Shown here: positions 15,453-56,211 of the stretch, piece by piece
Numbering within the stretch: the first letter of the stretch is position 1
Layout of the letters: every line of letters begins with the position of its first letter
Origin: Amoebophrya sp. A120
Taxonomy: Eukaryota; Protista; Dinoflagellata
DNA length: 64,000 nt
Reading direction: 5' to 3'
Assembly: GCA_905178155.1 (NCBI GenBank)
Contig: CAJINV010000009.1
Coordinates: forward strand, 2,395,373-2,459,372
Notes under the pieces: generated by a model
Database searches by the model: none
What the model saw: only the letters and a program-made list of their open reading frames with translations
What the model was told of the DNA's origin: nothing
Program-made: the position numbers and the translations under genes

Positions 15453-15594
15453 TATGAAAGTGTCAGAATCGAAATCGACAAAATCGAAAAATTTGTGATG
15501 CATAAAATCGATACCAGTTGGGCCCTCAGTTTCCGAGTGGCGCATGACAAATTTCGGGAGCACCCAAATCCAGTCTGTCATGCTGTTTGGGCAA
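15453..15594. mobile_element. Introner family D, truncated by the assembly gap
   Basis: Starts TATGAAAGTGTCAGAATCGAAATC, closely similar to 23025-23160; N at 15595. Confidence 0.8.
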
Positions 15595-15595
15595 N

Positions 15596-22900: not shown

Positions 22901-25900
22901 ACAAGAAAGTCCCAGACCTTCTCTTTGATGCGTCCAAGAAAAGGCTTCTTTACTTTTTCCGGGACCTCCTCCGGGACTTCGGGCGCCAAAGCCTTTATGA
23001 ACATTTCTCCTTCTGCCTTCTCTTTATGGAAGTGTCAGAATCGAAATTCACAAAATCGAAAAATTTGTGATGCACAAACTCGATGTCAGTTGGAGCCTCA
23101 GTTTCCAAGTGGCGCATGACAAATTTCGGGAGCACCCAAATCCAGTCTGTCATGCTGTTTGCGCAAAGAAGGCTGCTCCTGTCAAGCCACTTTTGCAGCA
23201 GTTCCATACCCCTAAACAGGCTCACAATCGGCCTCATTTGCCTGCCCCGCAATACAGGCCTTGCGTGCCATACATTTTACGCATTACAAGTTTTTCGATT
23301 TTGTTGATTTGGATCCTGACACTCGCATACTCTTCTTGATCATGTTTGACACCGTTCTTGAAGACTTCTTCTGCCAGTTTCGCCACCTGCTTGTCCATTC
23401 CCTGCCAAAGTTCCACCGCTTCCACTTATTGAGAGGAAAAATCCCCCCCTCCCCATATCGAAAAAGTATCTTTCCGAAAATTTGCGTTGCTGATTTGAGC
23501 CTTAGTTCCCCATGATATCCGTAGGCCAGACGTGCGTTGCTGATTTGAGGTCACAAATCATATTTGTGTTGCAAGAATGAAGACAAGGGTAGAAGCTTCC
23601 GCCCCATTATGGAAGCGATTTGTCATGCTGTTGGGCCTAAAGGTCAGCCGTTTGCAATGCTGAACAACTAGACCCATACGCCCCTAGCTAGCCTGGGGAT
23701 CTGGTCGCAGTGCCTTCCTGCAATACAAATCTGATTTGTGTACGCAACTCCAGCATCACAGATTTCCTTTTTGATATGGGGAGGGGGGATTTTTCCTTTT
23801 CATACCACTTCCAGGGTATCCACTTTCTCGTTTCCTTCTACGTCGGCGAGCACATGTTGCAGGGCCGCTTCGCTCTTCTCATCGTCCGTCTGCTCGTGCT
23901 CGTCTTTATTACCCGAGTCGTTCTGGTTCTGCTGTATGCCGTTGATGTGGTCGTTCTGTGGTGGAAGTGGTAAAGCTGCAACTTTTGTAGAAGGTTGTGA
24001 CGTGATCGTGATGTTGTCGACTGCTGGCTGTGCAGCTTTTGGTGTTTTGTTCTCGAGGAAGTTGAAGAGCTTTTGCGAAAGGAATGTCGCGAGGCGTTTG
24101 GCCATGCTTTGCAACCCTTTGCCTAGCGTCGCCAATCCGTGTGCCACGTGGGTCACAAGCTTCTTGAGTTGCTCACCCGTGGCCTTTATGCCCCACGAGA
24201 CAAGTTTGCCGGCCTCGCCGAGCAGTTCGACAGCTTTCGAAAAAGCGCCGGAAACAAGCGCCCAGACCTGCGAGAGCGCAGACCGCACCAAGAAGGGCAC
24301 AATGGATCCCACAAGCCCTTTGCCCACGATGTTCTGAAATAACTCGCGCAAAAAAGTAAAAGGCTCCCCGTTCATGAACTTTTCGACCATTTTCTTCACG
24401 GTGCCGTGCAGGTAGTCGCCGATGGGCACCGCAACCCCTGGAACAAACCGAAACAGGGTTGCCTGCGCCGCGACGCCAAGGCTCAAACTGGCGGTCTGCG
24501 CCAAGCGGTCGGTCAGCACCCGGAACATACGCTTGAAACTCAACTCACCAAACGCCAGCTTGGCAATGAACTTCGAAAAGCTAGAGCCCGCATCCTTCAC
24601 TTTGTCTTTCAGCCAAGTCGCCTTCTTATAAAAGCCTCAGGTTGGAAATCCTCAAAGTGGAAAGAATTTGTGATGCATGAAATGCAAGGCAAAAAAGACT
24701 GCATTGCAGAGGACACAATGGAGACCGACTCTTGTCCTGCTAGGGGTGAAGAGTTGGAGTGTTGCTTAGCACGAGAGAAGGGCACCCCTTTGCCTTAACC
24801 TGCATGACAGACATGCTTGAAGGGCCCGGGAACTGTGTCATGCGCCGACTACAAACGGCGCTTCTATTGGAGTCGTTTTTTTGCATTACAAATTATTTCC
24901 ACTTTGAGGATTTCCAACCTGAGGCTTTCATACTTCTCGAGCAGGGACCGGAAGATGTTGCGCAAGTCCGGAATCTATCACATGCAAAAGTGTCTGGGTC
25001 CGGAAGATTCCAGGAGTTTGTCATGCATGTTCTGGATCACGCAACGAACTGGTCTCTAGTGCACGCAAAAGCATTACAGGTTTTGCCCAGGCCTCCTGAT
25101 GTCTATCCCGCATGAGAAATAATTCCCTATTTGCGTAGCACGAAGTGGAAAGCTTTTGGTGCCTATGCAATACAAATTTTTGCCTATTCCAGAAATTGCA
25201 TGACAAGTTCCAATTCTTCCAGACCCAGACATTTTTGCATTTGATAGAATCCGCCGCTTCACTCCTTCCCAAAAATTTTTCGCAACCCCGCCGAAGAAGG
25301 AGCTGGACTGGTACCAAGCTACAACCTCTTCGGCTTTTACTTCTCTTTTCCCAGCAGCTAGGCACTGCTGATTTATTTCCTGCTTCTTTCCATCAGGAGC
25401 TTGAGCTTCTACTGGGCACTGCAAGTCAGTTGTTGCAGCAAATGTTCCTTCTCCCTGCAACATTTTCGCCACTGCAAGCGGGATGATTTCATCGTTTTGC
25501 AGCACGTCGCTCTCGGAATTTGTGTCGTCCAAAGTTTTTTGTTGCTGTTCCTGGATGCGACGAAAGCGTTCAGCTTGGCGACGGGCTTCGGCTTCCTCCC
25601 GTTCTCGCTCTTGTTCTTCCTCGCGCCTTTTCAGGGCTAAAAGGTCGTCCCGAGCTTGCTCGTACGGTCTACCGAACGCAGCGGCAAACTCCATGTCCAT
25701 ATCCTTATGGATGTGTCAGAGTTGAAATCGACAAAGTTGAAATAATTTGTCATGCATAAAATCGATGCCAGTTGGAGCCCAGTTTTCAAGTGGCGCATGA
25801 CAAATTTCGGCGGTCCCTAAATCCAGTTTGTCATGCTGTTTAGGCAAAGAAGAGTGGTTTTCTCATGCTACTTTAGCAGCTCGAGCTGTAACCCCCAACC

Positions 25901-27309
25901 AGGCTTACAATCGGCCTCACTTGCCTGCTCTGCAACACACGCGCCTCGGGTCATGCATTTCATGCATTACAAATTATTTCAACTTTGACGATTTCAAACC
26001 TGACGCTTCCATAATCCTCCGGACTTCCGTAATCGAAGTCGTCGTCGTAGAAGGGGGACAGTCCTCGCTGCAGCGCACTGCTCTGCACTTATCCAAGAGA
26101 AAAACGTTGTTAGTGTAAATTTGTGATGCGCAACATGCAAGATGATTGCGTCTGTCATGCTTGGCATGCATTGTAGGGTCCATCACAGGGCGTTTTCACG
26201 TACTATCTGCGCATGACAGGTTTTTGCTCTCATGCCAGACAGATTTGTAATGCTGTTCCTCCAAAAAAGTTACACCTACAATGTTTTTTTCTTGGATAGC
26301 ACTTGCTCCGTTTCCAGTATCTTCCCCGAGAGTGACGTCGAGTAGACATGCGCCAGCACCTCCTGCTGCTCACTCTGATCAACCTGCTGATCATCGTCCT
26401 CGTCATAATCGTATCAAGTGTAAAAATGTCTGGGTCTGGAAGAGTGTTAAACTTGTCATGCAGGTTATTTTCCATGACCCATGAGGTCTGGTCTGGAATG
26501 CGGGACCTAGCATGACAGAGTCCGCGAGGTCTCTGTCATGCCTATCCTGCATGAGAAACTCCCTCCCAACTTGGTCGAAACTGGGCAGCTTTTGGTAGTC
26601 ATGCAACACAGATTTTTGCATGATTCGGCTTCAGCATGACAAGTTGCAATCCCAATCTTCCAGACCCAGACATTTTTACATTTGATAAATCGGCTGAGTG
26701 TCCGAGGTACAACTCCAACATCGGCCCGTTATCGTCTGCTGGTAAATCATGTAGTTCTGCCTCCTTCTCGCGTGCAAAAGACACGACTGCTCCTTCAGGG
26801 TCGACGTTCCTGGTGCCCTCAAATGGGCGAGTATACGATGCTTCGTCCTCACGGCGGAGGTTCGACGAATGCGGCTGGTCCGCGAAGATTCTACTGCGAG
26901 GTACGTCTTGCGTCTGCAGGAACGCACGGCCCCCCTGCGCATCAGATTTTTCGTTTGGCGAGGACGATAAGGATATTAACCTAGGCGTGCGCGGCTCCGC
27001 CTCCGGCTCCGGCTCGTCGGAGTCGTCGGAGGAAATTGTGTTCTCAATACTACTAATCATCCCAGCATCTGCCTCGGGTGAGTCGTTTTCAGTCTCCTGA
27101 CCCTCCTTCCTCCGCAGTTCCATCAGCTCTGCAGCAACGAATAAGCCGCAGCCGGAGTAGAGCGTTGTGTTGGAGGCCGAGGTGCTGGTAATCGTGGTAA
27201 AAATAGTACCGGCATTATTAACACCGCCTCCCAGGAGCTCGAGCGCCCTGGCCAAGAAGAGATGAAGTACGCCACATGTAGAAGCAGTACGACCCAGCAG
27301 CAACAACAT
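16981..27309 (-). CDS. Large hypothetical protein split by 19 introners; 3' end unresolved
   Basis: Exons stay in frame at the junctions translated after removing element + one TSD (e.g. HSAD|YDEDDDQQ, SPED|MDMEF, EVVLG|TVVDYVFP, KICP|ILGPVEF); start codon tentative. Confidence 0.7.
17059..17201. mobile_element. Introner family C (TIR TGCAAAAGTATCG)
   Basis: TAT...ATA, TSD acgct. Confidence 0.9.
17259..17530. mobile_element. Introner family A
   Basis: TAT...ATA, TSD cggac. Confidence 0.9.
17592..17819. mobile_element. Introner family H (TIR TATGGCGTTCTCAA)
   Basis: TAT...ATA, TSD tgcca. Confidence 0.9.
17966..18928 (-). mobile_element. Non-autonomous Helitron-like element (family 1)
   Basis: Minus-strand 3' end: palindrome cgccggcgtcc-t-ggacgccggcg then taatggtCTAG; inserted between A and T with no TSD; 5' end TA rather than TC. 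Confidence 0.7.
18380..18604. repeat. 12-bp minisatellite (CCCCAGATATAT)n inside the Helitron-like element
   Basis: About 18 tandem degenerate copies. Confidence 0.95.
19189..19473. mobile_element. Introner family B
   Basis: TAT...ATA, TSD cgcga/cacga. Confidence 0.85.
19518..19841. mobile_element. Introner family D (TIR TATGGAAGYGTCAG..GAAATCG)
   Basis: TAT...ATA, TSD aacag. Confidence 0.9.
19910..20243. mobile_element. Introner family I (TIR AAAAATCCCCCCTCCCCATAT)
   Basis: TAT...ATA, TSD gcttt. Confidence 0.9.
20341..20489. mobile_element. Introner family C
   Basis: TAT...ATA, TSD tgttc. Confidence 0.9.
20556..20708. mobile_element. Introner family E (TIR AAATTTCCYGTACATGTACA)
   Basis: TAT...ATA, TSD ctcga. 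Confidence 0.9.
20852..22025. mobile_element. Introner family D carrying a nested Helitron-like insertion
   Basis: TAT...ATA, TSD cgttg; flanks match the uninterrupted copy 25706-26013. Confidence 0.9.
21122..21988 (-). mobile_element. Non-autonomous Helitron-like element (family 2, copy 1)
   Basis: Minus strand starts TTACTATCTATTATATTCATGCG and ends hairpin GCTCCGGC-gtta-GCCGGAGC + ATGGCTGG (CTRR); A|T target, no TSD; homologous to 44088-45023. Confidence 0.8.
22168..22439. mobile_element. Introner family A
   Basis: TAT...ATA, TSD ggaaa. Confidence 0.9.
22494..22801. mobile_element. Introner family D
   Basis: TAT...ATA, TSD gaaag/gaaaa. Confidence 0.85.
23025..23329. mobile_element. Introner family D
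   Basis: TAT...ATA, TSD ctctt. Confidence 0.9.
23427..23804. mobile_element. Introner family I
   Basis: TAT...ATA, TSD ccact. Confidence 0.9.
24627..24932. mobile_element. Introner, D-related subfamily (TIR AAAGCCTCAGGTTGGAAATCCTCAAAGTGGAAA)
   Basis: TAT...ATA, TSD cttct, TIR of ~37 bp. Confidence 0.9.
24976..25246. mobile_element. Introner family A
   Basis: TAT...ATA, TSD gaatc. Confidence 0.9.
25706..26013. mobile_element. Introner family D
   Basis: TAT...ATA, TSD atcct. Confidence 0.9.
26090..26298. mobile_element. Introner family G (TIR TATCCAAGA.AAAAA..TTGT..GTGTAA)
   Basis: TAT...ATA, TSD gcact. Confidence 0.9.
26412..26687. mobile_element. Introner family A
   Basis: TAT...ATA, TSD aatcg. 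Confidence 0.9.
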
Positions 27310-29409
27310 GTTGATCGCGAACAAACAGAAAAGGACCAAGACCCGCCCACTTCTCCCGCATGATACCAGTCTTCGACCGCTGGAGTGCTCGTCGTGGTGT
27401 GTGCGCAAAAATCTCCTGTCCTCACTAAGGCCTGCATTTTTATTCCCACTGTCGATAGACTTAGACGCTCTGCATCTGGGAAAGCCGCGCCCAGGGCCCT
27501 GAAGAATAAACGGAGGAGGTCGAACCTCCATCGATAAAGTTGAAGTTCTGCTGCAGCTTTTTGATTATTTTGTCTTGGCTCCCGTCGACGACAAGTAGGC
27601 CTGGTTTGGTTTTCATGTACGAAATTTCATTGCGTGGGGCAGTGCATCAATCATGAGGCGCGACAAGAATTTCTTGCACAAAATTCAAGTTCAATCTTCG
27701 AAGATCCGCATAAGAAAACAACCCCGACCTGGACCTCCAAAATAGCAATACTAGGTACTATAAACACGCTGCAGAACAACTACAAAGTTGGAAGTATACC
27801 GTTATGAAATGACTCAGCAGCGCCTTCTTCGCGGTGTAGATATTCAACGGGCCGAGAGGTGAGTCGTGGTGGTTGATGAATCTGTGGAGCACCCTGTGGA
27901 AAAACTCGCCCCCGAGTACTTACAGCAGCTAGGTCGCGGCTCTTGATGAAGATTGCTCCATCGCTGTGCTGATCTTCATGATCAATCGAGCAGCCGGGGG
28001 GGCAGAAAGTAGGAAGTCAAATCATGATTCAAAGTGTCGATCTTTCTCCTAGGCGGGGGGAGGTGCCTCGTCAAGTGGTAAAACTAAAATTCATAAATAT
28101 ACTTAAAAAAGAAATTCAAATTATCGGGATACTTGAAGAATTAAAGGGAAGGTGATGTCCTCGTCGCGTCACAAATGTAGTTGGACGCGCAAGAACAAGT
28201 TGAAGCTCTGTCCAAATAGAAATATCACTTGTTAAACATAATATCGCGACAAAGTTATTTCGCCTTGTTTTCCTCCATGCGCGATATCCATAATATGTTA
28301 TGTGAGTGTTCCAGCACCGCGACCAACTTATATAAAAACGATGAGACAGACCAAAACGCACGGCGGCCGACCGATCAAGACTGACGTCAACATCTTTGGC
28401 ATAAAGTCTTTTCTTTGGATGCACCGATCTCGATCCTAGTCCTATCAGGATTTCTGACAAGAACCCCTCGACGGAAGGGGTGACCGACTCAGACAGTAAA
28501 AAGAGTGGACGACGAGTTCTTGCAGCACTAGTAGAAGTCAAGTGGAAATCATATTTTGCAATAGTAGAAGTCGACGAGTAGTTCTTGCATTAGTGGAAGT
28601 GGTGGACGAGTTGCACTCACGCAAAAACCGAAGAAACCGCGTAGAAGTTGTAGCTGTAGATACCGATTAATTTTGAAAAATACAGAGACCGACACGCGCT
28701 GAGGCCCAGAATTGTAATCACGCCGCTACGAAGAGCGGCACTATTTTTGCGTCGAGCATACCATCGGGGAAAGCAGGGTGGGCCCGCCTCCCGCCCTTTC
28801 GCCCGCTGGGGATCCCGCCTGCGGGGGGGCCCTTCACACTGCGCACAGGGCGAGAAAGTGTGCTTGTTCTTCCCTACCAGACTTCATTCCATTTTGGTTT
28901 TGCTACACTTCGTTAAAGTTAATATGCTTCAATTTCTCTTTTCCCGCCATCTGTAGTTTCTATATTCTTTGGAAAGAGCTCGACAAAATTGTTGACCAGC
29001 AAAACATCCACCTCCACCACAAGGCACCGAGCAGCGAGCCCGGCGACGAGACGGCGCGTGCATTGCTTATGCTTGTCCGAATCTTCGTACTAGCCAAAAT
29101 TGGGGTGAACGATGATGATCATCTCGTCCTCACGACTTATTTATCATTATTAAGAAGAGTAGTTGTTGAGAAAAAATTAAGTACAAGGCAAATCTATTTT
29201 AAGTATGAGTTAGTAGTAGACGATGAAATAAAAATGATCACAGCTCCGGTCGTTCCTTTTCTCAGAAAGAAAAGCCCTGAGGTACTTAATTTACGCAATA
29301 TTAATCAGCAGGCAAGTTACGCAGTGAAGAAGAGATATTCTAATTTTCGCTTTGTTCCCAAATATCGCTGGCCTAAGTCCGAGAGGACTAGCTTGGCCAC
29401 GTTGTTGTC

Positions 29410-29646
29410 TATGAGTGCGCACAACTCCCCCTCGTCCCCCTCATCTTCTGTCATACAAAACATCAAATCCACCCTTTGATGCCTCTTGGCACCTCTTGCA
29501 TGACAGGTTCTGGTAGATCAAACAGCACTACAATACTGGGTAAACTTGTCATGGAAAACCCGCATTCTTGCCGACGCTCGGGCTCGTATTGCTGCTCATG
29601 TGTCAATACAAATGAGGGCCGGGAGGATGAGTTGTGCACTTTCATA
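29410..29646. mobile_element. Introner family J (TIR GTGCACAACTCCCC), downstream of a stop codon (probable 3' UTR)
   Basis: TAT...ATA, TSD ttgtc. Confidence 0.85.
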
Positions 29647-29779
29647 TTGTCCTTTTCTTCTTGAAGTAGCACTAGTAAGCAAAGACGAAGCTGCCAACAT
29701 GTCCGGAGATGACCAGCTTCATAAGTGGTTTGTTTGTTTGTTGAGGATAGAGTCAGCCCATGATCTCAAAAAATATTTT

Positions 29780-32700
29780 TTATGTTGAATAAACACACAA
29801 GCCAAGAAAAACAAGGCCAATCCCAACAGGTAGCAGAACCTGAAAAAGCCCGAGAATCTATAAGAGTGCACAACCCGTTATGGCGTTCTCAAATGTTACA
29901 TTCTCAACTGTTACATGAATTTGTAATGCAAGAACGGCAAAAAGAAAAACGAATGGGGGAAGCTTGCGCCTCTTGCATTACAGATTTGGCACAGATTTAC
30001 ATGTTATTTAGCCCTTTCGGAGATTTGTCATGCGAAGCAGCTTAATGGTGGCGAGCTTGGTGGCAAATTTGCATGACAAATCATGTAACAGTTGAGAATG
30101 TAACAATTGAGAATCCCATACCCGTCCCCCTCTCGCCCTCATATCCAAATCCATGCTATGTTGTCATGCAAAATACTAAATCCACATGACATGCTGCCAC
30201 TGCCTTGTACACTGTTTGCAAGGCAAATTCTGGAGGCCAAAACTAACAGTACCCCCGTAGAAGGCGCATGAACTATGCACGACGGCATACACGACGTGCG
30301 CTGGCATTTGTCTTGCTGGTCGTGGCATACAAATGAGGGACGATTTGTGCACTCGCATAAAATCGTATACAAAAAAAACATCTTCACGGCGCAAACCACT
30401 ACAGCGCCCAGGGTCAAGCCCCCATCTGCAAGACCTTGCCGAAAACGGTGCACCTGCAGAAGCGTGGTTGCTTGATCAGTCTCAATCTGGTCGTGTGTTC
30501 TTGTTGTTGACAGCACTGCGGCCCCCCTTCTCGTCGGCAAATAAGCCACAGGAGTGGTCTCATGCGCGGCCATTCTTGTCGGCAAAGCTAAAGCAGTCTC
30601 ATCACCTTCGGTTTTTTGAAGCGTCGAGCTTTTTTCGGTAACATCCGGAGCGTTGTTTTTTTTGTTGTTCTCCGCTCCTGTGTATGCAATGCAAAAGCAT
30701 CGCACTTGTACAAATTGCATTTACAAAAAACTTGATGCTCTGGGTGACAAATGCAATTTGTGATGCTGTTTCACCTTAGGAAGAAGATTTGTCATGCATA
30801 TTTGCAATTAGTACCTACGAGTACGATACTTTTGCACATGATACTGTGGTGTCAACCTCCACCTCCGCGCTGCCGGGCAACGTGGTTATGCAAGAAAAAA
30901 CCTGCGTAAGTGTAAATCTGTGATGCAGAATTATGTAAAACAGTTATCAATTGTCATGCTGGATTTGCGTCATAGGCAACTTTTATACGCGTTTCCGATG
31001 ATACTAGCTGCGCATGACAGGTTTTTCCTGTAATGCAAAGCGAAAGCGAACTTGTGATGCTGCTTTTCCTACAAAGTTACACTTACACAGTTTTTTTCCT
31101 GGATAGTAGTGAGAACATCGGCAATGCGAAGCTCAGCCTTGTCCGTGCCAAAACCTGGGATCGTACTCATCACGTCATACCCGCTGGTTTGCAAGTATGC
31201 AATACAAATTTCCCGCACATGTACAACATGCATCACAAATTTCACCAGTTTGGAACGTAAAACTTGTCATGTTAAACTTGGATCGAGACCAAGTTTTGTC
31301 ATGCAGAAACCGCATCTGTACGTGTACGGGAAATTTACTGTGGATAGCAAGAAGTTCCACTTCTCTTCCTCAGCTAGAAATTGCACCTGCCGCGAAAGAA
31401 CCTCGTCGGAGGTCCTCGTGGTTTGTTCTTGTTGTTGCAAGGGGACCACCCCTGGCGACGTCGTCCCCGTCCCCGTGCCCAGGAAATAGGAGATACCGAC
31501 TTCGAAGGTTTTATGGATCTGTCAGGATTGAAATCGTCGCATTGTCATGCATAAAATGCAATAGACAATAGACACCCGTGCATAAAATGCAAGGCATGAA
31601 GTGCCTGTCTTGCCGGGATGGCAAGTGAGGCAGATTGTGAGCCTATTTAGGGTTTGGGACAGAGCTGCTATCTAAAGGAGCACGACAGAAGCAGTCTTCT
31701 GTGCCCAAACAGCATGACAAATTGGATTCCGGCGCTTCGTAAATTTGTCATGCGCCGCTTGGAAATTGGTCTTCCAACTAGTATCCATTTTATGCATGAC
31801 AAATCATTTCAACTATGTCGATTTCAAACCTGACGCTTCCATAGGTTTTTTGTGCGGTGGCCGTCAGCAGCTGCAGCATTTTTTGTTCCCGGGCTTGATC
31901 CGATACAACAAGACCACGAGCGTCGCGGTCCTCATCTGCAAGTCGCACGAGAGTGGGGAGCGGTTTACTAGGGTCCAGAGACCGGAAATAGGTAGAACCA
32001 TTCGCAGGATTTGGATTCGGCGAAACATTCGAAGCAGGAGTTGTAGTATCCCCGGCCGAGGATAATTCTGTTGTTTTTCCTGTTGCTGTTCCCAACCCGC
32101 CCTGCCGCAGGAAGGTGGCAGCGAGTCCTTTATCCTGTGCAAAAATGTTTCGCATTCGTATAGCAATCATGCAATGTTTTTTTTAAAAACGTAAATCGGC
32201 ATTTGCATTACAATTTTTATCTCTACTCATGCTGAGGAAATAAGTTGTAATGCATTTATACAACGAGTACGATACTTGTTTTGCAGTTCATATGCTTGGA
32301 CCGAGTGCAACGATGCGGCGAAGGGAGCGATGAATATTCTGAGTAAAAATGTCACCACGCCAGAGCTGTCATGCAAATCTGCATGCCAAAAAAGTTTCTC
32401 ATGCGGAGCGTCATGAGAGCCGTTTCCTAGTCGTGTTTTGGAATTTGTGATGCTATAATCAGCACGATATGCTAGATCTGTGATGCTTCGGAACTAGCTA
32501 AACAGGACTACACTACCAGGACAAACTTGTCATGCGAAACAACCATAGCTGGTTGATTTGTCTAGCAGATTTCCCATCTTGACTCTGGCATGGGGACACT
32601 TTTACTCAGGATAATGAACGACTTTTCCTCTTCCTCGATTATCAACTCGACTGCCCCGGCCTCACTACCGCCCCCCGCATTGTGGAACATGCGGGGAAAA

Positions 32701-35700
32701 AAAGCCGTGCCGTTGGGCTGAATCGGAAACAGGATGTACGTATCAAATGTAACTAAAAGTGTCTGGGTCTGGGAACTTGTGATGCTGGGTGGCGTCTCAT
32801 GATGAGGCCACAAGTGCTTTTTGCATGACAAGTTTCTGAGCCACCTCTAAGTGTTGCCTATTCTGCATGACAAACTGCGTTTCTGCATCACAGAAAAGTG
32901 GAGCTCTTGGGTAACGTGCATGACAGATTCTCGAGTCATGCCAGACAAGCATGACAAACTTGCATTCTTCCAGACCCAGACATTTTTACATTTCATAGTA
33001 CGGCTGCGGCGCTGCCGGCTGCAAATTGGTGCTGCTTGATGTCGTTTTCCTGGTTCTTGTACTAGCGATTATACCTTCAACATCGCTCCTCCCGCTGGCA
33101 CTACTTCGAGAGTCAACTACGCCGGCAGAGTCATCTTCACGAGGACCTTCGTCGTCTTTATCCTGTGCAAAAGTATCGTGTACTCGTATAAATGCATTAC
33201 AAATTTTCTCACCATGAGAAATAACATGCGGATTTACCTAACGAAAAAGATTTGCAATGCATGACTGCACTTACTACGAGTACGATACTTTTGCACTTCA
33301 TAGTCTTCTTTTGTCAGCAACGACAAGGGGTCCATTTCCTTCGCCATCTGCCGCGTTTGCTTCATAAGTTTGGGAATGTCGCGCGCGAGAATCTTCTTTT
33401 TCAGCACTTGCAGCTTGCGCAGCCGCCCCGCCCGAGGGGCGGACTTCAAAAAGTTCAAAAACCGATTTTCGGATTCCATAGCGTGCAAGACTTTCTGCAC
33501 TTCCTCTTCGACCACCTGCAGCTGCAGCTTCTGTTCGTCATACAAGCCTTCAATGAGTTTCTCGTGCATGGAGAGCAGCGTTTCGCTCACTTTCAGGTTC
33601 AGCTGACAGCGAAAGGGGACACTATCCAGTCCGTGCTGTTTTGTGTAAGATCGGAGGGCATCAAATGTAAAAATGTCTCTGGGTCTGGAAACTTGTAATG
33701 CTGCGTTGGGAAAAATAGTGAGTGCTCTGGTATGTTGCACAGGCAAGCATGAGAAATGTCTGCGCTTCTTTGTGTTGCATTTTGCGCATGACAGACTGCG
33801 TTTCTCTTTTTGCATGACAGGCAAAAGGGTCTCTTCTTGGACACGCATCTACAAACTTTTTGGTCATGCCAGACAAGCATGACAAATCTCGCAATCTTCT
33901 TCCAGACCCAGACACTTTTTCATTTGATAGAGGGTGGAGAGGTCTTTATGGTTCTGCTCGCGCTCAAAAATCTTTCCGTTTTCGTTTGTGCCCAAAGGTC
34001 CGTCGTCGAAAGGCTTGAAAATAAACATATCCGAGGTTTGGCGCTGCACCACACGATATCATGTGCAAAAATGCCAGGGTCTGGAAACTTGTAATGCTAA
34101 AAGTGAATGATAGACGCACTGCAATACGCAGCTATGCATGACAAATTTTTTGGCTCCCATGTCTTACGTATTCCGCATGGCAAACTGCGTTTTCGCATGA
34201 ACGGCAATAGGGCCTTTTGTTGCCTATGCAACATAGATTCTCGAATCATGCCAGACAAGCATGACAAACTTGCATTCTTCCCGACCCAGACGTTTTTACA
34301 TTTGATACACGAAAAGAGGGCGGCAGCTTCAAATAGTGAAGGTCAGCGATGGGGATAGCTTTCTGCAGGTCGGTATGGATTGCAAAAGTGTCTGGGTCTG
34401 GAAGATTGCAACTTGTGATGCTGAATCCGAATGATGCAAAAATCTGTGTTGCATGAGTGCCAAAAGCTATCCCCCCTTTCGATCAAGTTGGGAGGGAGAT
34501 TCTCATGCAGGAGAGGCATGGCAGATGAGACCTCACAGACTCTGTCATGCTAAGTCCTGCATTACAGACCTGCTCATGGGGCATGAAAAATATGCGTGAC
34601 AAATCTGCATCTTCCAGACCCAGACATTTTTGCATTTGATAGTCGGTGCACATGTCACGCTTCTGCCGCCGATCCAGTACGGGCTGCGGGTGGTTATCCT
34701 GAGGAAAAACGTCCCCACCCCACAGTCAGGTTGGTAAAGTTGCAACACAAATCTCCAAGTTTTGGGAGTTATGCATGACAAGTTTGGCCTCGTAGTGTAA
34801 TGCTGTTTAGCTAGTTAAGCAGCGTCTTCACAGATTTAGCACATCATGCTGATTGGAGCATGACAAATTCCGAAACAAAACTAGAAAATGTCCCTCATGG
34901 GGCTCCGCACGAGAAATATTTTCAGCATGCAGATTTGCATGACAACTCTGGGGGTGGGTGGAAACGTTTTTACAAATGATAGTGGTACAGCATGACCTTG
35001 TCGCTTTCTACGATCATAACTTCGCAGACAAGCGGAAAGGATTATCCTGTGCAAAAGTATCGCACTCGTATACGTATTGCAATCATGCATTACAAATCTT
35101 TATCTTTCTCTCAAAGGTAAATCCGCGTTACAATTTTTACTGACGAGGAAATGAAGATTTGTAATGCATTTATATGAGTACGATACTTTTGCAGTTCATA
35201 AGGATTCTCCTTTCACCATGACTGCAATCATGTCCCGCGTTTTTAGGCTAGCTTCCTGGTCAACCTGGGACCAATGCGCGAGGTCGGGCGTAACCCCTGC
35301 TACGGGAGCTGCACTAACAGTTGTAGTTGCGTTCAAGTTATGGATTGTAAAAATGTCTGGGTCTGGAAGGTTGGAACTTGTAATGCTAGCTTTCCATACC
35401 TAGAAAATCTGTATTGCATAACCAACAAAAGTCGCAGCCTCTTTTGTCATGCAAAAACGCAGTTTCTCATGCGGATTGCCTATGAGAAAGCGTTTTGGGA
35501 AGTTGTCATGCCGGACTGCATTCGGAAGTGTCTTCATCCTGCACATTTTAGCATCAGAAGTTTCCAGACCCAGACATTTTTGCATTTGATACAAGTCGGG
35601 AGAATTATTACCCTCTCCAATCCGCTCCACCGCCGTTTTCATCCGATATTACAATGAAAAATGCCCCCTCCCCATATCAAAACGGAAATCTGTGATGCAG

Positions 35701-36916
35701 ATTTGTTGTCACAGATCAACTTTGTGACGCTAGAAGGCAAAAGATGCGGACTGTAGTGCTGCCTAGCGTGGGAAAGCCTTGCAGCTCCAGGATAACAGGA
35801 GGCAACTGAAAGTGGGAAACAGCATGACAGATTGCCTGCAATTTAGGCCGCAGCTTCGTCTCTTGGACTTCTAGCAATACAAGTCGATTTGTGTACTCAA
35901 ATACAGCATCACAAATTCGCGCATCTTCCGTTTCCGATATGGGGTGGGGGCTTTTTTCACTTTGATATCCGGTCGGCAAAATTTTCTCTCTTCTCAGTGG
36001 CATCTCCGACCGCTTCCAAGTCTTGTAGCTTTTCCCCCCCAGAGACGGTAACCACTTGATCAGTGAAATTGCTCCAGACTGCTTGCATTTTGGTCAGCAG
36101 CTCCCTACGTTTCTGTTCCGTGAACGCCTCCCCCCGCGACCGCAGCAACCGCCGGGCCTTGTTGCCCCACCAGAGCCAGGCGATCGCGGATCGCATAGAG
36201 CGCACACTTTTGACAATATTCGTGTCTCCCCAAGTAGGTGCCGTCGCAATGTCCTTCAGGGTGTCCACAGCCACCTTGCCAGCAACAGTTCCCAAGACGA
36301 TCTTCCCAATGATCGTCCAGGCGGGCTTTTGTTTTTTTTGCAATTGCAGCATCGACATCAGCTGTTGCTGGTGGTGGTGGTGCTGCTGCTCCATCTTCTG
36401 GGTCGACGTCGTGGTTGTCTTCTCTTTCATTTTCTTCGTCCGTCGTGAAAATTTTTGGAGGAAAGCGTAGTGCACTTCGCTCGTCCGAATAGCACCAAGC
36501 TGGTCCTCTACTTCGTGGCTTCCAGTTCTTCTCTCGTCGAAAGAGCTCAGGGAGGTAATGTCGGTTGTAGTACCAAAAATGTTGACGTCTGTTGTACTAT
36601 TCTGGAGGTCCAGCGGTACAACAGGACCGTGAGTACGCTGGCGATCCTCAAGATGATGAGGAAGTCGTTGTGAAGATTTATGATATAGGACGAGTTCCTG
36701 TTCCCCTTGTTCTCCTTCTTCTTCCAATTCAACATCAACTTGCCGCTGGCCCTCGTGCTGCATTAAAAACACCATGCCACACGTTTCTCTCGTCGAGAGG
36801 AAAAACGCGGCCAGGGGAACAGAAGCGAGAGAGATCATCCTCCTTGTCCTTGAGGGGCTTGTTCCGAAGTTGTAGGCGTCGTTCATCTTCAGGTCGTCGT
36901 TTTTGGTGCTCTTCAT
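29780..36916 (-). CDS. Hypothetical protein with a C-terminal hydrophobic segment, split by 16 introner introns
   Basis: In-frame joins at the junctions checked (FADR|MKT, VLTT|LPG, VDTT|GAE, LYTI|LGLFQVLLPVGIGLVFLGLCVYST*); start tentative. Confidence 0.7.
29859..30359. mobile_element. Introner family J containing a nested family H introner
   Basis: TAT...ATA, TSD gaatc/aaatc. Confidence 0.85.
29879..30120. mobile_element. Introner family H nested inside the TIR of the J element
   Basis: TAT...ATA, TSD cccgt. Confidence 0.9.
30683..30843. mobile_element. Introner family C
   Basis: TAT...ATA, TSD ctgtg. Confidence 0.9.
30887..31105. mobile_element. Introner family G
   Basis: TAT...ATA, TSD gtggt/gtagt. 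Confidence 0.85.
31196..31346. mobile_element. Introner family E
   Basis: TAT...ATA, TSD gcaag. Confidence 0.9.
31512..31843. mobile_element. Introner family D
   Basis: TAT...ATA, TSD ggttt; body resembles 19518-19841 in reverse orientation. Confidence 0.9.
32131..32292. mobile_element. Introner family C
   Basis: TAT...ATA, TSD tcctt/tgctt. Confidence 0.85.
32335..32613. mobile_element. Introner family B
   Basis: TAT...ATA, TSD atgaa. Confidence 0.9.
32741..32997. mobile_element. Introner family A
   Basis: TAT...ATA, TSD gtacg; very similar to 47754-48011. Confidence 0.9.
33159..33302. mobile_element. Introner family C
   Basis: TAT...ATA, TSD gtctt. Confidence 0.9.
33659..33929. mobile_element. 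Introner family A (variant left end CAT)
   Basis: CAT...ATA, TSD gaggg. Confidence 0.85.
34057..34307. mobile_element. Introner family A
   Basis: TAT...ATA, TSD cacga. Confidence 0.9.
34374..34641. mobile_element. Introner family A
   Basis: TAT...ATA, TSD gtcgg. Confidence 0.9.
34695..34981. mobile_element. Introner family B
   Basis: TAT...ATA, TSD gtggt. Confidence 0.9.
35043..35200. mobile_element. Introner family C
   Basis: TAT...ATA, TSD aggat. Confidence 0.9.
35339..35591. mobile_element. Introner family A
   Basis: TAT...ATA, TSD caagt. Confidence 0.9.
35647..35967. mobile_element. Introner family I
   Basis: TAT...ATA, TSD tccga/tccgg. Confidence 0.85.
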
Positions 36917-37807
36917 TTGCTTTTCTTGCAGAAGAAAATAAATGCAGGTAAATAAAGGTAACTTAAATTTTTTCTTCAATCTACTGTATTGACTTCTTGA
37001 AAGATTGTTGAAGAGTAGAACTCCATTCAATCGCTTGATGAAAAATACATACGTGCAGTAACCAACACTAAGTGCTTCCTACTTGTACTTGAAAGTGTTA
37101 TTTTTCTTGGGATAAAGTAGAAAACTGCGCCGATCTCTACTCTGTGCCGGAATTATAGTCGAGTGGAGGTAGTAGTGGAAAAAGTAGAGCACAGAGTCCC
37201 CTTCACGGCGGCGGGTCACTAGGCTCTAAAAATCTTCAAGACCGACAACAATCATCTCTAGTTTTTTAGCGCCGCAAACTGCGAGTTTATGACCGAGAGT
37301 TTTAATAGTTCTGGCAGAGGAAAATAAAGCAGCAGGACAGATAAGCAGGACGGCTGCTTCTTCGATAAGTACACACGGCGGAGTCGCACCAGCAGCTACT
37401 GCGCCTTCAACCGACGCACTTCTTCGAAAGCGCAGAATCACAGAGAAGCAGAGCAGTAGTGGACATCATCAGACCACTAGGCCAAGAAACCGAGCTATTT
37501 CAACATCAACCGCACGTCACGTGCGATCTTGGGAAAGGCATTATCTATTATCCGATGTAAAATTGGATACAGAATGCTTATTGTCATCTTCCACTGCACC
37601 GATGAATATTCAGCTGCAACGTCGTGGTCGTATGAACCGAGTTCCTCGCCTGAGTGTCAAAAAAGAAGCACCTCCCATCTTGACCACGAGCGCAAAGACC
37701 GACCGGGCGCGGGCACTGTATTACATGCAAGTGCATCCTGATACTCATTTGAATGCTAACTTGGTAGGTGGAAGAGCCAACTTCAACTGGCTTTTGTTGT
37801 TGGTCGA

Positions 37808-37889
37808 AGATGTGGAACATCAAGAGCAGTCCAAGCTTTTGAGCGGATGAAGATTCATTGCTTTACTTTCGCCATTCTGCTGAAGATCT
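37808..37889. repeat. ~85-bp dispersed duplicate, copy 1
   Basis: agatgtggaa..aagagcagtcca.gcttttgagc..atgaagattcattgctttactttcgccatt..ctgctgaagatct recurs at 39845-39928. Confidence 0.85.
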
Positions 37890-38276
37890 ATTAAAGTTGT
37901 AAAAGTAAATGGGTATCCGTACTATGGCCAAAAAGTAATACGACTCAAATGAGAGCTATCGCTTTGCATGCCCAAAATCAATAAAGGCGCAGTCCCTGCT
38001 CCCGCATATGGAGCTGGAGGACTGTCTCGACATCATAAAGTTCAGGCTTATCTGTCATCTGGAGAAGTGATGAAATTGAAACAAGAGAGCACATCATACA
38101 TCTATTTTCACACATCACACCACTCCTGCAAGCTCTTCAATACTTTTGTCTAAAGAGCAGAGACGCCGATGTTGTACGTTTTTTCGCGTTTTGTGGTTCG
38201 TTATCCGCGGCTGGATGCGTAAAGTTCGTTGTGCTTGATGTCCCCAAGTAAGTATCTCATTTTTCCAGTGCAGAGG

Positions 38277-39571
38277 CTAGTACTCGAGGTCCTCCTGTGC
38301 TGGTGCAAGTTGGCGGCACCAAGGAACCCAAATGTCGTTGATGTCGCGAAAATTGGCGGGAGTAAGGTTTTCGCACATATCTTTCTTCATCTGATCTACT
38401 ATGGAAGTACTACACAGACTGTCGGAGAAAAGGCTGTTCGCTGTGTTCACAATATCAAACAAAAAACTGTCAAACGTTAACGGTTTTCATAGATTGCAAA
38501 TATGCATGACAAATTCTTAGCATGCATGCTACGCATGACAAACACAAGTTTTGGCTTTTGTGGTGCATTACTGCATCACAAATTTCGTTAACGTTAACAC
38601 TTTTTCCTGTGATACAAAATCGGTAGCTTTGCGCGAGAAGATGATGCGCCGTCGTTACTGGTAGTAGCTGTCGTGGTTTTATTACTTTGTAGCGGGTAGT
38701 TCACATCGTCCTGTTTTTTGCTGATCTTGCACGCCGCCAGCTCCTCGTGGTCCTCTTCTTGTTCTTTCTTCGGAGATGTTGCAAGGAACCCTTCCGAGAA
38801 GGCGGAGCCGTTGGATGACGAAGATTTCTTCGCTGAACTATACAAGGACATTCTCTTCATCCCTTCGTCCAATTGGTCAAGCTGCCGCAAATAGTCCTCG
38901 TCCATCAGCAGGCGATGGTCGTCGATGATGTCTTGAGAAACCAGGCGGCGCATGGTTCCGGAGCAGGTGCTAAAAGCCCCCGACTGCTCACTGTCGCTCG
39001 GAGAAAACTGTCGCCACAAATGATCCGCGAACCTGTCAAGAACAACCTCCGGTGCTGGGTGTTGTTGATCTTCACTGTGCTGCTGCTGCTGCGCCGGTCC
39101 TCGTGGTTGAAGCATCTGATCTCGCTCGTTGACGTTGGTCGTCCCGGCTAGTGGGCGCAACAAGAACGGGGCGTCGGGGCCCTGTGGTCCTCCTCGGTGC
39201 ACAACATCAGAGCCGCCTGGCAGGTCGCCCGGAATAAATGCATTGTCGACCGGATGCGACAGCGGCGCTAGCTTCGCGTCCGGAGAATACCAGTCGCGGG
39301 CCGGCAGGAGTCGTGGCGCCAGCTTCGCGTCCGGAGAATACCAATCGGCCGGCAACGGGGCCATTTTCCCGTCCGGAGAGAAGTCGTGGGCAAAGACCGG
39401 CTCGTGGCCCTCTGCGTCCGCATGAGCTGCTGCATCCGGGTCGTCGAACGGGGCCGGCGGCGCCAGCTGTGCATCCCCCGGGGCGATGAATCCACGCGAC
39501 GTCAAACGCACCGCTCCGGCTTGCGCAACAGAAGTGGCTGCAAGAGAGGTAGAGAGGCAGCGAAGCAACAT
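38277..39571 (-). CDS. Hypothetical protein with a probable signal peptide and a short internal repeat (WYSPDAKLAP); 2 exons
   Basis: ORF 39571-38615 joins 38447-38277 in frame after introner removal (KLPI(L/V)NTANSL...EDLEY*). Confidence 0.75.
38453..38614. mobile_element. Introner family L (TIR AAAAA.TGT.AACGTTAACG)
   Basis: TAT...ATA, TSD cacaa/caaaa; reverse-orientation relative of 47511-47686. Confidence 0.85.
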
Positions 39572-39844
39572 CGTCGGAAATGGTTTTTAGCTTCAGGACC
39601 AGATGAACCAAGTTTAGGTATTAATCGAGAACAAATTGGTACAAATATGTTTGAGGTAAAACCACTCAAAAGAGTAAACGAAATGTAAACGAAAACGATA
39701 AGGATAACGATAACGAACGTGAAAATATTAGAATATAGAAATACGATCAGTGTACTTACATGAGGAATATCAAAATCTATATCACTGGTACAGAGGACCA
39801 CGCCTGGCGTCCTTCTTACGATGCCTGGCTTTGTTGTTGTTCGG

Positions 39845-39928
39845 AGATGTGGAAGAAGAGCAGTCCAGCTTTTGAGCACCACATGAAGATTCATTGCTTT
39901 ACTTTCGCCATTCATCTGCTGAAGATCT
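39845..39928. repeat. ~85-bp dispersed duplicate, copy 2
   Basis: Matches 37808-37889. Confidence 0.85.
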
Positions 39929-40404
39929 TTATCTGATTCATTTCGAATTCGAATTGGAAGACTTCATTGCTTTGCACCAGCGGAGCGGCTGCGTGAAAGG
40001 TGTAGGTAAGCTCTTTCGTTTCGAATTTTTTCCGCATGCTCTGGGATAGGTTTCATCTTTGCATCTTCCCCGGCAGTAGTAGATCTTTGTGCAAGAATAG
40101 ATTCCACGTGCTCCATTCCTAACGGTTGATATTAGATTCCACTTATGCTCATATCAGAATCCAAGGAATAGTTCAAAGCTCAGCTGTCTATATTCTGTTT
40201 CACCTCCGCATCTTTAGTGCGATAGACAAAGCATCAAAGACAGGCTTTTGACCAATTAAATGTACAACAAAAACAAGGAGCCTACACTACTGCTAGTTCG
40301 TGTGAAAATTACAAACATCGGTGAGGATTTCTAAGTTACGTGGATCTCTAGTACAATCGCTTCAATATTATTTCTCTCCTAGTACAACAACCGGCGCATG
40401 CAGG

Positions 40405-43400
40405 CTACAGTATCCGCCTACTAGTAGCCATGGTCGACGCAGCTGCATCGACTGATGCGTACATTTTCCCCAGCCCGCTTCCGCCCTCGACGTCGACGGT
40501 TTGCGTACTCCGCCCGGGCGAAAAGGTCAGCACCGAGCAATCCGGACCGACCCAGTACATGTCGCAGACACACTATCCCACGAAAAAAGTGTTACAGTTA
40601 CATATTTGTTTTTGTAGTGAATTCAGCAACACAAATTTCTCTGCATGAGAGAGAAAACTTGTAATGCAGAAATCCTAGGGGAAAACACGTATGAAACGAG
40701 GCTCCTATGCATATCCGGCATGACAGAGCTTGTCTGTCTTGCTTGGCCTGCAACACAATGTGTAACTGTATTAACACTTTTTTCTTGTGATACACACTCC
40801 CCGTCGACGCACACCCCGTTGCCGGAGCACTTGTTCAGACACAATTTCCGCTCGCAGTAGCTCCCCTCGTAGCCCTGCACGCAGATGCACTGCTCGGCCG
40901 GAAACTCATTCCAGCAGGTTCCCCGGTGCTCTGTCGGGGTGGAGCTGCAATTTTTGAAGCACGCCGCCAGACTGCAGTCCTCGCCCGTCCATCCCGTGTC
41001 ACACTCGCGTCTAACAGTGCACAACTCCCCCTTCTGCCCCTCATTTGTAATTGTGCACGAACGAGTCAACACAAGCAACGACAGAAATGGGCCTGCGCCC
41101 ACAACATAACGAAGAAATCTTCTACACATGGAATGTAGCACTATTTCAGGTTATTTCGAAATTTGTGATGCGAACAGTGCTTGTTCAACGCAAGTGGCAA
41201 ACGTGTACGTGGAATTGGTATTTTGCATTACCACAAACGAGGGGGAGGGGAACAAGTTGTCCACTTTCATATCGCACCTTCGTACTACCGTGTCCTTCAA
41301 TGCTGCCGCACCTCCAAGCGCGTAGGCGTTTTTGATGCCTGCGGGTATGTTGGGGTGCGAGACCCCATAGCGAACGTCGTCCGTGACGCACTGACCCCGC
41401 CCGGAACACTCAATGCAGTGATATTCCATCGAGTTCGGATCCGTGTAGCAGGGCGATCCGGGGCACATCGGTAAGGAGCAGTCCGGCCCCGTCCACCCAT
41501 TTTCGCAGACGCAGTGGGAAAACTCGCAAACGTATTACAACGAAAAATGCCCCCACCCCATAGTCAAAATGGGGAATCGGCTAGACAAATCCACAAGCTT
41601 TGGCTGTTTTGCATCACAAATTTGGACTCGTAGTGTAGTGCTGTTTATTGAGGTAGTTCAGAAGCATCACAGATCTGGTATATCATGCTGATTGGAGCAT
41701 GGCAAATTCCAAATCACGACTAGAAAATGCTTCTCATTGGGCTCCGCATGAGAAACATTTTCAGCATGCAGAGTTGCATTACAACTATGGGGTGGGGACG
41801 ATTTTCAATACGATAAAACGCCCTTCCCCGTGCAGTTGTTGGGGCACTGGTCCGGGCGGAGCCGTATGCATTGCAAAAGTATCGCAATCGTACTAGTCTA
41901 AATTGCATTACAAATTTGCTCAGCATGAAAACTGGAATTTGTCATGCTGCTTTACCTTAAGGCCAAGACTTGTCATGCATGATTGCAATTAGTACAAATA
42001 CGATACTTTTGCAGTTCATAAGCCGCCACATGCCCAGGTGCATGGTGGGACGAAAGACGGGGATAAACTCGTCTACGTCGCTATGGAAGCGTCAGGTTTG
42101 AAATCGTCAAAGTTGAAATAATCTGTAATGCATAAAATGCATGACCCGAGGCGCGTGTGTTGCAGACAAGGCAAGTGAGGCCGATTGTAAGCCTGTTTGG
42201 GGTTACAGCTCGAGCTGCTAAAGTAGCATCAGAAAATCGCTCTTCTTTGCCTAAACAGCATGACAAACTGGATTTAGGGACCGCCGAAATTTGTCATGCG
42301 CCACTTGGAAACTGGGTTCCAGCTGGCATCCATTTTATGCATGGCAAATTATTTCAACTTTGTCGATTTCAACTCTGACACATCCATAGTCGCAGATCCC
42401 CTTGCACAGAAACCGCATCGCGGTTAAGTTCAGAAAACCCCCCTCGACAATCGCGGCCGGGCCCTCGCGGACGATCAAATCGTATTCCCGCGTAACCCCT
42501 ATCCTGATTAAAAACGTCCCCACACCAGAGCCAAGATGGGAAATCTGCTAGACAAATCGACCAGCTTTGGCTGTTTGGCATGACAAATTTGTCCTCGTAG
42601 TGTGATCCTCGATTCAGCTAGTTCACATATCTGCATCACAGATCTATCATAGCATGCTGATGGTGGCATCACAAATTCCATAACACGAATGGAAAATGCT
42701 TCTCATAGGGCTCCGCATGAGAAACTTTTTTGGCATGCAGAATTGCATGACAACTCTGGGGTGGGGACGTTTTTAGACAGGATAACCACCTCCTTGTCCT
42801 CATCGATCGCTTCGGCCACAATTTTCTCTTTCGACAACCCGTTCTCATCCGCTATGACCAGGTTCCTGCAACCGTTCTCGAAAGTAAACTGCCCCGGGAC
42901 ATCGCAGATCGGCGGATTCACGTCTGTCCGACAGCCGTTCGCCGCGGTAAATTGGCCGTCCTGGTCACAGATTGCCGGATTTTTGTTGGGTTTTTTGTTC
43001 CACAACTGGTCTTCCAAGTCACTCCCGGGCTCCGGAAAGTTGTTCGCCAGGGGGCAACACAAGCCCCGCAACGCGCAGTTTCGCTTGATGGACCGCAGTA
43101 AATCGGTCGTCAAAGGGTTCTTCGGGTCTCCCTCCAGGATAAACAAATCCGTGATGTTTGGGTACTGCAGTTTCGTTTCCGGGTCGTGAAACGTCGTGGG
43201 CAAGTCTTTCGCGGATTTGAAACAGCGTCGATCTCGATCTCGTCGCGTGTCCGTCACGTTCAAATCCGTTTTCACCCAGCTGTATTAGAGTGCACAACTC
43301 CCCCGCCCCCTCGTTTGTCATGCAAAATGCCAAATCCGCGCCTTGCTCTTTGGCACCAAATGCATGACAAGTTCTCGATGCCAAAACCGCACTACAGTCC

Positions 43401-51629: not shown

Positions 51630-52149
51630 CTTGCGACGCTTACCTTCGAGATGAGGACGTATTGGTATTGAACTCCTGCTAGAAGTTCTCGTCTTCATCT
51701 TTACGTCCGTCGCTGCTTTTTCACTCTCCTCTCTTCTCCTCCGCATGTTCTCCTTTCTCCAACGCGAAAATATCCTCGGGCCGCACGTGCCGGAACTTAT
51801 TCCCTCGCGCAACTCAATCATGACGCTGCAGCCCGTTTTCGTGCGGCAAGCGTCACAGGCACGCTGCTATTCAAGCGTGGTTCGCTGGCTGTGTGCCTCT
51901 TCTACCATCCGAAGGGGCACCGGAGGAAACAGACGAAGGGACGAGGTAGAACAACGAAAACGGTCTGTCCCCCCGCATCTTCAATAACTAAATCACAAAC
52001 ACAATCTTGAGTTGGCGGAGCAAATACAATATTAATTCTTGTACAGGATGCATTCTTGTTCTTGGAAAAACCCTCCGTCCTCTCCGAACCAGCCGGCTGA
52101 TCATGAGTATGTGTGCGATATTAATTGATCCAGGAGGTTACTGCACAGT

Positions 52150-55800: not shown

Positions 55801-56211
55801 TAGCAGAAATGAAAAGTAAAGGCGATCAAATTATGAAGGGGAGCAAGATCTGCCATTCGCATTCCCGACCTGTTCCTTCATTCGGCGAGAACTTGACCTT
55901 TTCTTTCACCCTCACTCTCCGTAACTAATCTTCTCCCATCTATCTCTCGCTGCTGAACAAAGTCATTGACAACGTACCATCTTGACGAGGACCAAACAGT
56001 TCCAGTAACCTCCTTTAGATCCAAAGCACCTGCTTAGGCCGGAAACGAAACACTAATTCAAGTTCAACATCTTACACCATCGAAGAAAGAGTGCACTACC
56101 TACGGTAGAGGTTTCAAAATCAGGTTCGGCAATAAGCAAAGCAAAATGAAATGGAAATGGTCGCTCAACTCATGATACATTCCCTGCTCCTGCCAGATGA
56201 CTCACAAAATC

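Follow-up and report, generated by a model that had tools for sequence, protein, structure and literature searches.

How an intron can be removed from a transcript whichever way round it lies is the question raised by a 64-kb window (the whole stretch of DNA analysed here, 64,000 nucleotides) of Amoebophrya sp. A120-type DNA, in which families of introners occur in both orientations within genes read from one strand. How tens of thousands of A120 introns come to be removed with neither GT-AG borders nor U1 has yet to be explained (Farhat et al. 2021; PMC7789003). Three proteins encoded in the window, the aldo-keto reductase among them, were 100% identical to proteins named Amoebophrya sp. A120, and comparison of the window with itself gave dozens of repeats of 140–380 bp in both orientations. 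The favoured explanation, given a probability of about 0.55 as a whole, is that the introners are transposon-like, that either strand presents the same end signal and that a modified spliceosome responds to it.

Elements were searched for as TAT..ATA ends with inverted repeats and a flanking 5-bp duplication, and the list was completed by eye. This gave 67 inverted-repeat elements covering 29% of the window, 65 of them in multi-copy families. Every element was flanked by a direct repeat of 5 bp, perfect in 53 and with one mismatch in 14, while a 6-bp repeat was found at 0 of 67; swapped flanks matched in 0.09%. TAT stood at 65 of the 67 transcript-5′ ends, and A was dominant at positions 11–14. 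All families had ends consisting of TAT, C/G, loose bases and a run of A, together with an inner motif that faced inward at a median of 42–44 nt from each end. The terminal inverted repeats (TIRs), the fixed-length duplication and the lack of coding capacity fit a miniature inverted-repeat transposable element (MITE) or other non-autonomous TIR transposon. A search for the end motif in viral contigs gave 0 matches.

A wider sample was obtained by scanning with one end motif, which yielded 148 stretches of one public assembly carrying the same families as the window. These look like separate insertions, the matches shown against the masked window being of element type. Eighty of the stretches were scanned, the other 68 being shorter than 2 kb and left out, and gave 280 unique elements, of which 274 were kept and 6 lacked a confident strand. 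Strand was set by the codon model, which agreed with an open-reading-frame rule at 44 of 45 loci. The detector recovered 60 of 64 known simple window elements and one further real element. The pooled set of window and wider sample held 341 elements, 312 in 13 families and 29 without a family.

Identity was computed for same-orientation and reversed alignments, over the whole element and over the interior (the central 56%, inverted ends excluded). The copies at 25706–26013 and 42082–42388 gave 0.65 in the same orientation and 0.95 reversed (interior 0.51 and 0.95), and 20852–22025, with its nested insert taken out, gave 0.66 and 0.95 against 42082 (interior 0.53 and 0.92). The corresponding values were 0.62 and 0.85 for 19518 and 31512 (interior 0.56 and 0.84), and 0.61 and 0.82 for 38453 and 47511 (interior 0.54 and 0.77). 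The first-pass annotation of this DNA had described near-identical copies lying in opposite orientation in same-strand genes; its coordinates hold and all four pairs are inverted, near-identity applying only to the two pairs that involve 42082. The host genes A–D do all lie on the minus strand, as indicated by stop-free frames, Pfam matches (kelch and EGF repeats in the exons of gene D) and a leave-one-out codon model used for sense and antisense scoring, in which sense scored above antisense in 8 of 8 genes. Both orientations of family D occurred within gene A alone, with 22494 and 24627 opposed to 19518, 20852, 23025 and 25706. Seven of the ten multi-copy families in the window were two-way, as were 13 of 13 families among the 312 assigned elements of the pooled set. 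Family 0b had been taken as one-way (7:0), which was dropped after a reversed copy appeared (8:1). The most skewed families are 0b (8:1), 6 (13:2) and 1 (52:76), represented for example by window elements 20556, 19910 and 10763 and by L040:6021.

Excision of each element together with 5 nt left 0 stops in four of four genes. Other removal lengths (+0, +4, +6 and +10) were tried and set aside, with 15–34 stops in genes A, B and D and 1–4 in gene C. Evidence from RNA came from contigs of run X3, a single sample placed on 30400–50350, and consists of interval sums with no single junction reads. Over three intervals the X3 contigs were short of 1542, 319 and 1708 nt. Adding up element plus 5 nt for 6, 2 and 8 elements gives exactly these lengths, and all eight checked coordinates agreed with the removal of these 16 elements. 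Among them are opposite mates of the short family, 41865 and 46642 (+) with 46929 and 48745 (-), opposite mates of family 4 within one gene, 41010 (-) with 48057 and 49546 (+), and also 42082 and 47511. Run X3 does hold spliced RNA, since one of its contigs joins 46200 to 46353 over a GT-AG intron that a DNA contig spans. Two RNA contigs near 45541–45558 overlap by 18 nt, not 30 nt.

Runs X3–X6 gave no listed exon cover at 19080–32100, and removal in genes A and B rests on deposited proteins. P0121 was identical to the predicted product of gene A at 1186 of 1186 residues and P0123 to that of gene B at 983 of 983 aligned residues, which matches the removal of 19 + 15 = 34 more elements with no mismatch, including 25706, 20852, 19518, 22494, 24627 and 31512. 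The A120 protein annotation was built from transcript alignments, standard tools having failed on these introns (PMC7789003). A paralog of gene A with 49% identity was ungapped over 14 of the 19 element sites, so gene A is not a decayed copy. Among the 274 further copies, removal of element plus 5 nt scored best for 119 of 144 in the majority orientation and 88 of 101 in the minority orientation (83% and 87%). The weakest case is 38453, whose removal would follow from an extension of the reading frame and from a contig that starts at its edge. The unspliced product of gene C was absent from the protein collection, which carries no information either way. The first-pass annotation had named an orientation left unspliced or confined to pseudogenes as evidence that would count against its reading; the RNA contigs, the deposited proteins and the 274 further copies instead agree in placing removal of both orientations in working genes.

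Another possibility is that copies in one orientation are spliced less well and persist chiefly in genes that tolerate them or are weakly expressed. The minority orientation made up 122 of 312 elements against 134 expected (p 0.025), a mild bias, the most skewed families being 52:76, 13:2 and 8:1 (p values uncorrected over 13 families), and the two-way introner classes of Polarella are also biased (bioRxiv 10.1101/2020.10.14.339549). Such a bias could arise at insertion, however, and it has to be set against the two-way use of all 13 families, the similar restoration of frame in both classes and the removal of opposite copies from one RNA contig. As the main story, unequal efficiency is improbable; as a partial modifier it is compatible with the favoured explanation.

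The exact loss of an element with one repeat, indifferent to orientation, is also what precise excision of a transposon from DNA would give, and RNA contigs alone cannot separate the two levels for the elements. Excision from DNA before transcription, one direct repeat being retained, had been put forward in the first-pass annotation by analogy with ciliate internal eliminated sequences. DNA contigs, however, ran unbroken through whole elements at 40742–41587 and 46768–47568 with a depth of 19–38x like that of the flanks, in one sample, among 15 of about 1400 joint rows, and in contigs of a kind that drops rare variants. The RNA runs hold element ends on long foreign flanks while 26910–29519 has no depth, which suggests element-containing transcripts and not DNA carry-over, and the transcript-upstream copy was retained at 2 of 2 sites with a mismatch at repeat position 4. 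Amoebophrya is not known to have a separate somatic nucleus, so that any excision in the feeding stage would pass to the progeny and eliminate the elements. DNA-level excision is very improbable, and removal at the RNA level in both orientations can be accepted with high confidence.

Canonical borders are not needed for this removal. The sequence of the flanking duplication was near random over 341 copies, and a GT/GC..AG reading in any register was possible in 21 and absent from 320 (GA donors were not in the count); within the window 3 of 67 elements allowed it, and 31 of 67 had AG at the end in some register. Recruitment of splice sites from the duplication was considered and rejected. The strand-specificity of spliceosomal signals, cited as known in the first-pass annotation, does not exclude two-way introns, since signals carried in terminal inverted repeats are present on both strands, as in the Polarella introners.

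The annotation had further proposed that recognition is symmetric and based on structure. Symmetry is borne out in the sense that, at the power of the test, 0 of 1202 internal columns depended on orientation after Bonferroni correction (minimum p 0.004), although a signal inside the inverted repeat would escape this test. A structural signal would be a terminal RNA stem, cut at fixed offsets from its base by a spliceosome-independent endonuclease and ligase or by a second splicing machine of the sort proposed for euglenid nonconventional introns, and orientation would be irrelevant because a hairpin is its own reverse complement. Predicted folds do bring the ends into pairing on both strands (in 63 and 65 of 67 window elements), and the near-random flanking repeat, the lack of a strand-specific internal column and the non-detection of U1 in A120 (PMC7789003) all suit such a model, as does the precedent of euglenid introns, in which paired ends keep the intron together and a full-length circle is released (PMC11282704). 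Tests of modest power nevertheless gave no indication that RNA pairing is selected on the strand that is transcribed. G·U and A·C pairs in the terminal 25 nt numbered 319 and 283 over 341 copies (p 0.15) and 238 and 216 in independent loci, and the transcript strand folded lower in 184 of 341 (p 0.15) and in 144 of the 274 further copies. The ends of an element paired with one another no better than with those of other copies (0.70–0.87 against 0.68–0.87). Positions 4–7 are often unpaired, yet position 4 was C/G at 646 of 682 ends while being Watson-Crick paired in only 179 of 341 copies; position 7 was paired in 142 of 341. With TAC at the 5′ end a C·A mismatch results, and 48057 and 49285 are removed all the same. 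Pairing as the signal is for these reasons rather unlikely, and a sequence read-out of two identical ends, with the stem helping, is favoured over it.

Three apparent signals were abandoned during the analysis. An asymmetry between 5′ and 3′ ends at terminal position 4 in the window (1 against 10, p 0.009) was not replicated in 274 copies (12 against 13), and the other two, an excess of G·U (p 0.018) and a bias in folding (p 0.02), vanished when the strand of locus L053 was corrected and more loci were added.

Nested inserts at 26–38 nt from the end (in 17938, 20852 and 43967) part the end from the inner motif and removal still holds, so that the outer ~25 nt are likely to suffice. The inner motif, ~43 nt from the ends, is more likely to be a transposase site. 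At sites with a mismatched repeat it is the copy upstream in the transcript that was kept, at 42500, 46929, 49546 and 50071 as read from the edges of RNA pieces, and at 22494, 19189 and 32131 as read from deposited proteins. In 19189 and 32131 the mismatch lies at position 4 of the repeat, which places the cut after nucleotide 4 or 5. Canonical donors were GTAY in 7 of 7 read in the window (five by eye), TAC stood in place of TAT at 9 transcript-5′ ends against 2 at the 3′ end, the elements read N-TAY from repeat position 5, and G occupied that position 117 times against a mean of 98.5 (p 0.03, uncorrected). The GTAY donors, the TAC skew and the position-5 G are weak hints of an N|UAY donor register.

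The sequence of events would then be as follows. A DNA transposase blind to gene direction would insert the element and duplicate 5 bp, and the element would later be removed from the pre-mRNA and not from the DNA. The signal would be the sequence of the terminal ~25 nt at either end (UAU-C/G, a loose gap and an A-run), and the long stem would do no more than assist in juxtaposing the two ends. Cutting would take place after nucleotide 4 or 5 of the upstream repeat and after the same nucleotide of the downstream repeat, and the machine is predicted to be a modified spliceosome, to which either strand would present the same end signal. A spliceosome is favoured by the reported presence in A120 of 83 of 89 spliceosomal proteins and of U2, U4, U5 and U6, and by the repeat layout shared by 15% of A120 canonical introns (PMC7789003). 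Only tentatively can this be narrowed to a splicing route that dispenses with GT, AG, U1 and any strand-specific branch signal and uses one inward end motif and fixed offsets, so that every transposon bearing such ends would turn into a perfect intron at any site and in either direction; in its boldest form the donor would be N|UAY, the last base of the duplication replacing the canonical G, and the acceptor would be set by a four-base ruler after AUA.

Several points weigh against the favoured explanation. U1 was not detected in the A120 genome (PMC7789003), a search of the elements turned up neither a branch point nor a pyrimidine tract nor a 3′ AG, and a spliceosome might be expected to leave an orientation-dependent column. 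Positions 1–3 and 11–13 are complementary in 94–98% of copies, so that the stem can always form, which leaves a structural signal some probability. The cut register rests on two informative sites, and the mild orientation bias and the skewed families count on the same side. With regard to removal itself, the RNA support consists of one sample's contigs and of interval sums rather than junction reads, four boundaries (41010, 48057, 49285 and 49546) were set by eye after the RNA numbers had been seen, and the deposited proteins may derive from these very RNA data, in an annotation that picks the longest frame (PMC7789003).

The coordinates of the elements and genes are given in Table 1.

Table 1. 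Introners, host genes and one canonical intron in the 64-kb window (orientation is given for elements, strand for genes and the intron).
Feature	Position	Orientation or strand	Remarks
Family D introner, TAT..ATA ends, 5-bp repeat	25706..26013	+	Gene A; missing from deposited P0121
Family D introner with nested ~866-bp insert (21122-21987)	20852..22025	+	Gene A; P0121 and paralog P0122 ungapped at site
Family D introner	42082..42388	-	Gene D; 95% identity to 25706 when reversed; RNA contig coordinates agree with removal
Family D-type introner	19518..19841	+	Gene A; deposited protein matches removal
Family D-type introner	31512..31843	-	Gene B; missing from P0123
Family D-type introner	22494..22801	-	Gene A; repeat mismatch at position 1, upstream copy retained
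Family D-type introner	23025..23329	+	Gene A; deposited protein matches removal
Family D-type introner	24627..24932	-	Gene A; paralog ungapped over site
Family L introner	38453..38614	+	Gene C; probable removal extends frame to 380 codons; RNA contig starts at 38615, first base beyond
Family L introner	47511..47686	-	Gene D; RNA piece ends at 47505, length accounting fits
Short-family introner	46642..46797	+	Adjoins opposite copy 46929, same RNA contig; 319 nt = 161 + 158
Short-family introner	46929..47081	-	DNA contig passes through; RNA contig accounting
Short-family introner	41865..42020	+	Gene D; RNA contig accounting
Short-family introner	48745..48907	-	Gene D; RNA contig accounting
Family 4 introner	41010..41271	-	Same gene as 48057 and 49546 (+); DNA contig passes through
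Family 4 introner	48057..48286	+	Transcript 5′ end TAC
Family 4 introner	49546..49766	+	RNA contig accounting
Family 3 introner	19189..19473		Repeat mismatch at position 4; upstream copy retained in deposited protein
Short-family introner	32131..32292	-	Repeat mismatch at position 4; upstream copy retained in deposited protein
Short-family introner with nested ~940-bp insert	43967..45055		Insert 26 nt from transcript 5′ end; RNA depth 0.08 over insert
Gene A	16983..27450	-	19 elements; removal opens 1186 codons, the 5′ part of the frame lying ahead of the first Met
Gene B	30382..36898	-	15 elements in stretch; 976 codons open after removal
Gene C	38280..39586	-	1 element; 380 codons open after removal
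Gene D, kelch- and EGF-repeat protein	40408..51638	-	24 elements, 2 GT-AG introns; removal opens 1566 codons
GT-AG intron with element-like ends	46203..46354	-	RNA contig skips, DNA contig spans

The window also encodes a DEAD-box helicase, whose closest solved structure was Dbp5, and an aldo-keto reductase; like gene D, both lie on the minus strand. Introners at 10416–10694 and 10763–11026 lie in the Dbp5-like helicase gene, where their removal restores a conserved motif region as judged by eye; 10763 is in the minority orientation of its family. The GT-AG introns at 46203–46354 and 45296–45416 have ends like decayed elements (G then TAT/TAC, and five bases ending in AG beyond the far end) and remove element plus 6 nt; they are possibly introners converted to canonical introns. 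An introner at 29879–30120 sits 20 nt inside another at 29859–30359, into which the deposited P0123 reads; removing both gives a different, hydrophobic C-terminus, and the deposited end reflects either mis-annotation or an unspliced nested copy.

Two related inserts of ~0.9 kb within introners (21122–21987 and 44090–45029) were 87% identical over 526 nt, lay in opposite orientation and had no obvious inverted ends; relatives were seen in L072 (96%) and L014 (92%), pointing to a mobile element. Element 17938–19057 holds a ~950-bp insert at 17969–18925 with a tandem array of a ~10–12 bp unit at 18374–18605, and a 1.6-kb insert at 56625–58240 lies within a probable element. The region 52000–55900 is GC-rich (up to 60%) and contains neither an element nor an assigned gene. 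A single N at 15595 cuts a family D element (15452–15594), and proteins to its left and right are listed with contigs that differ in length (13,157,294 and 3,962,956). The window may join two pieces at this point; all named elements lie to the right of it.

Removal in both directions narrows the mechanism: all that it requires has to reside in the inverted ends, the part common to both strands, and the direction of the element interior is dispensable. Insertions that need neither a special target nor the right orientation explain the scale of the introner invasion. The inverted pair 25706/42082 and the neighbours 46642/46929 provide ready-made matched controls. Two-way removal comes as no great surprise in elements whose ends are inverted repeats, and two-way introners are known in a related dinoflagellate. 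What has been gained is a real and well-supported property of known elements, by which the question of mechanism is sharpened and not settled.

The elements of the window are the A120 introner elements of Farhat et al. (PMC7789003), who described introners among the non-canonical introns, the missing U1 and a hairpin model. The reported elements are TAT-starting inverted repeats with an A-run, short direct repeats, no GT-AG and RNA-supported removal, and those found here likewise have TAT, about seven loose bases and an A-run, carry repeats within the 3–5 nt range, form families and are missing from mRNA. The published repeats are of 3–5 nt, whereas 5 bp was found here in 67 of 67, and the published hairpin is not singled out by the pairing tests given above. 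That paper found no cognate autonomous transposase in A120, and TIR-type introners are listed for A120 in PMC12130899. In the main text of PMC7789003 'strand' occurs 0 times and 'orientation' 4 times, always for gene order, and in the supplement text 'reverse' and 'strand' occur 0 times; Figures S19–S25, outside this word search, could bear on orientation.

Introners in either orientation are described in Polarella glacialis, and the same is cited there for Aureococcus anophagefferens (bioRxiv 10.1101/2020.10.14.339549); the method of PMC9860276 also allowed insertions in opposite orientation. The Polarella introns are likewise derived from DNA transposons, formed in either orientation and biased to one. 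In Polarella the GT/GC/GA donors and AG acceptors come from element or duplication, which constrains the target, whereas the duplication here is near random. The A120 elements work like introners of the Polarella/Aureococcus type and are not members of it, a GT/GC..AG reading being possible in 21 of 341 copies. Nonconventional introns of euglenids share non-canonical borders, terminal inverted repeats, duplication-like junction repeats and a probable MITE origin, but have pyrimidine|purine junctions, CAG/CTG pairing and circles, where the ends here are UAU..AUA (PMC11282704). The non-GT/AG introns of Fritillaria borealis are also transposon-derived and non-canonical and are removed by an adapted U2 spliceosome; they differ in that AG-AC/AT ends dominate and U1 is conserved, whereas the A120 elements have no fixed end dinucleotide and U1 was not detected in the genome.

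Ciliate internal eliminated sequences are lost together with one direct (pointer) repeat and need a somatic nucleus. They differ from the elements described here, which DNA contigs keep and transcripts lose. In a search that left most subscription literature outside, no published account of removal in both directions without GT/AG ends came to light, and no paper was found on the orientation or excised form of Amoebophrya introners. The elements themselves are already known from A120; their two-way use without a canonical splice site seems not to have been described before.

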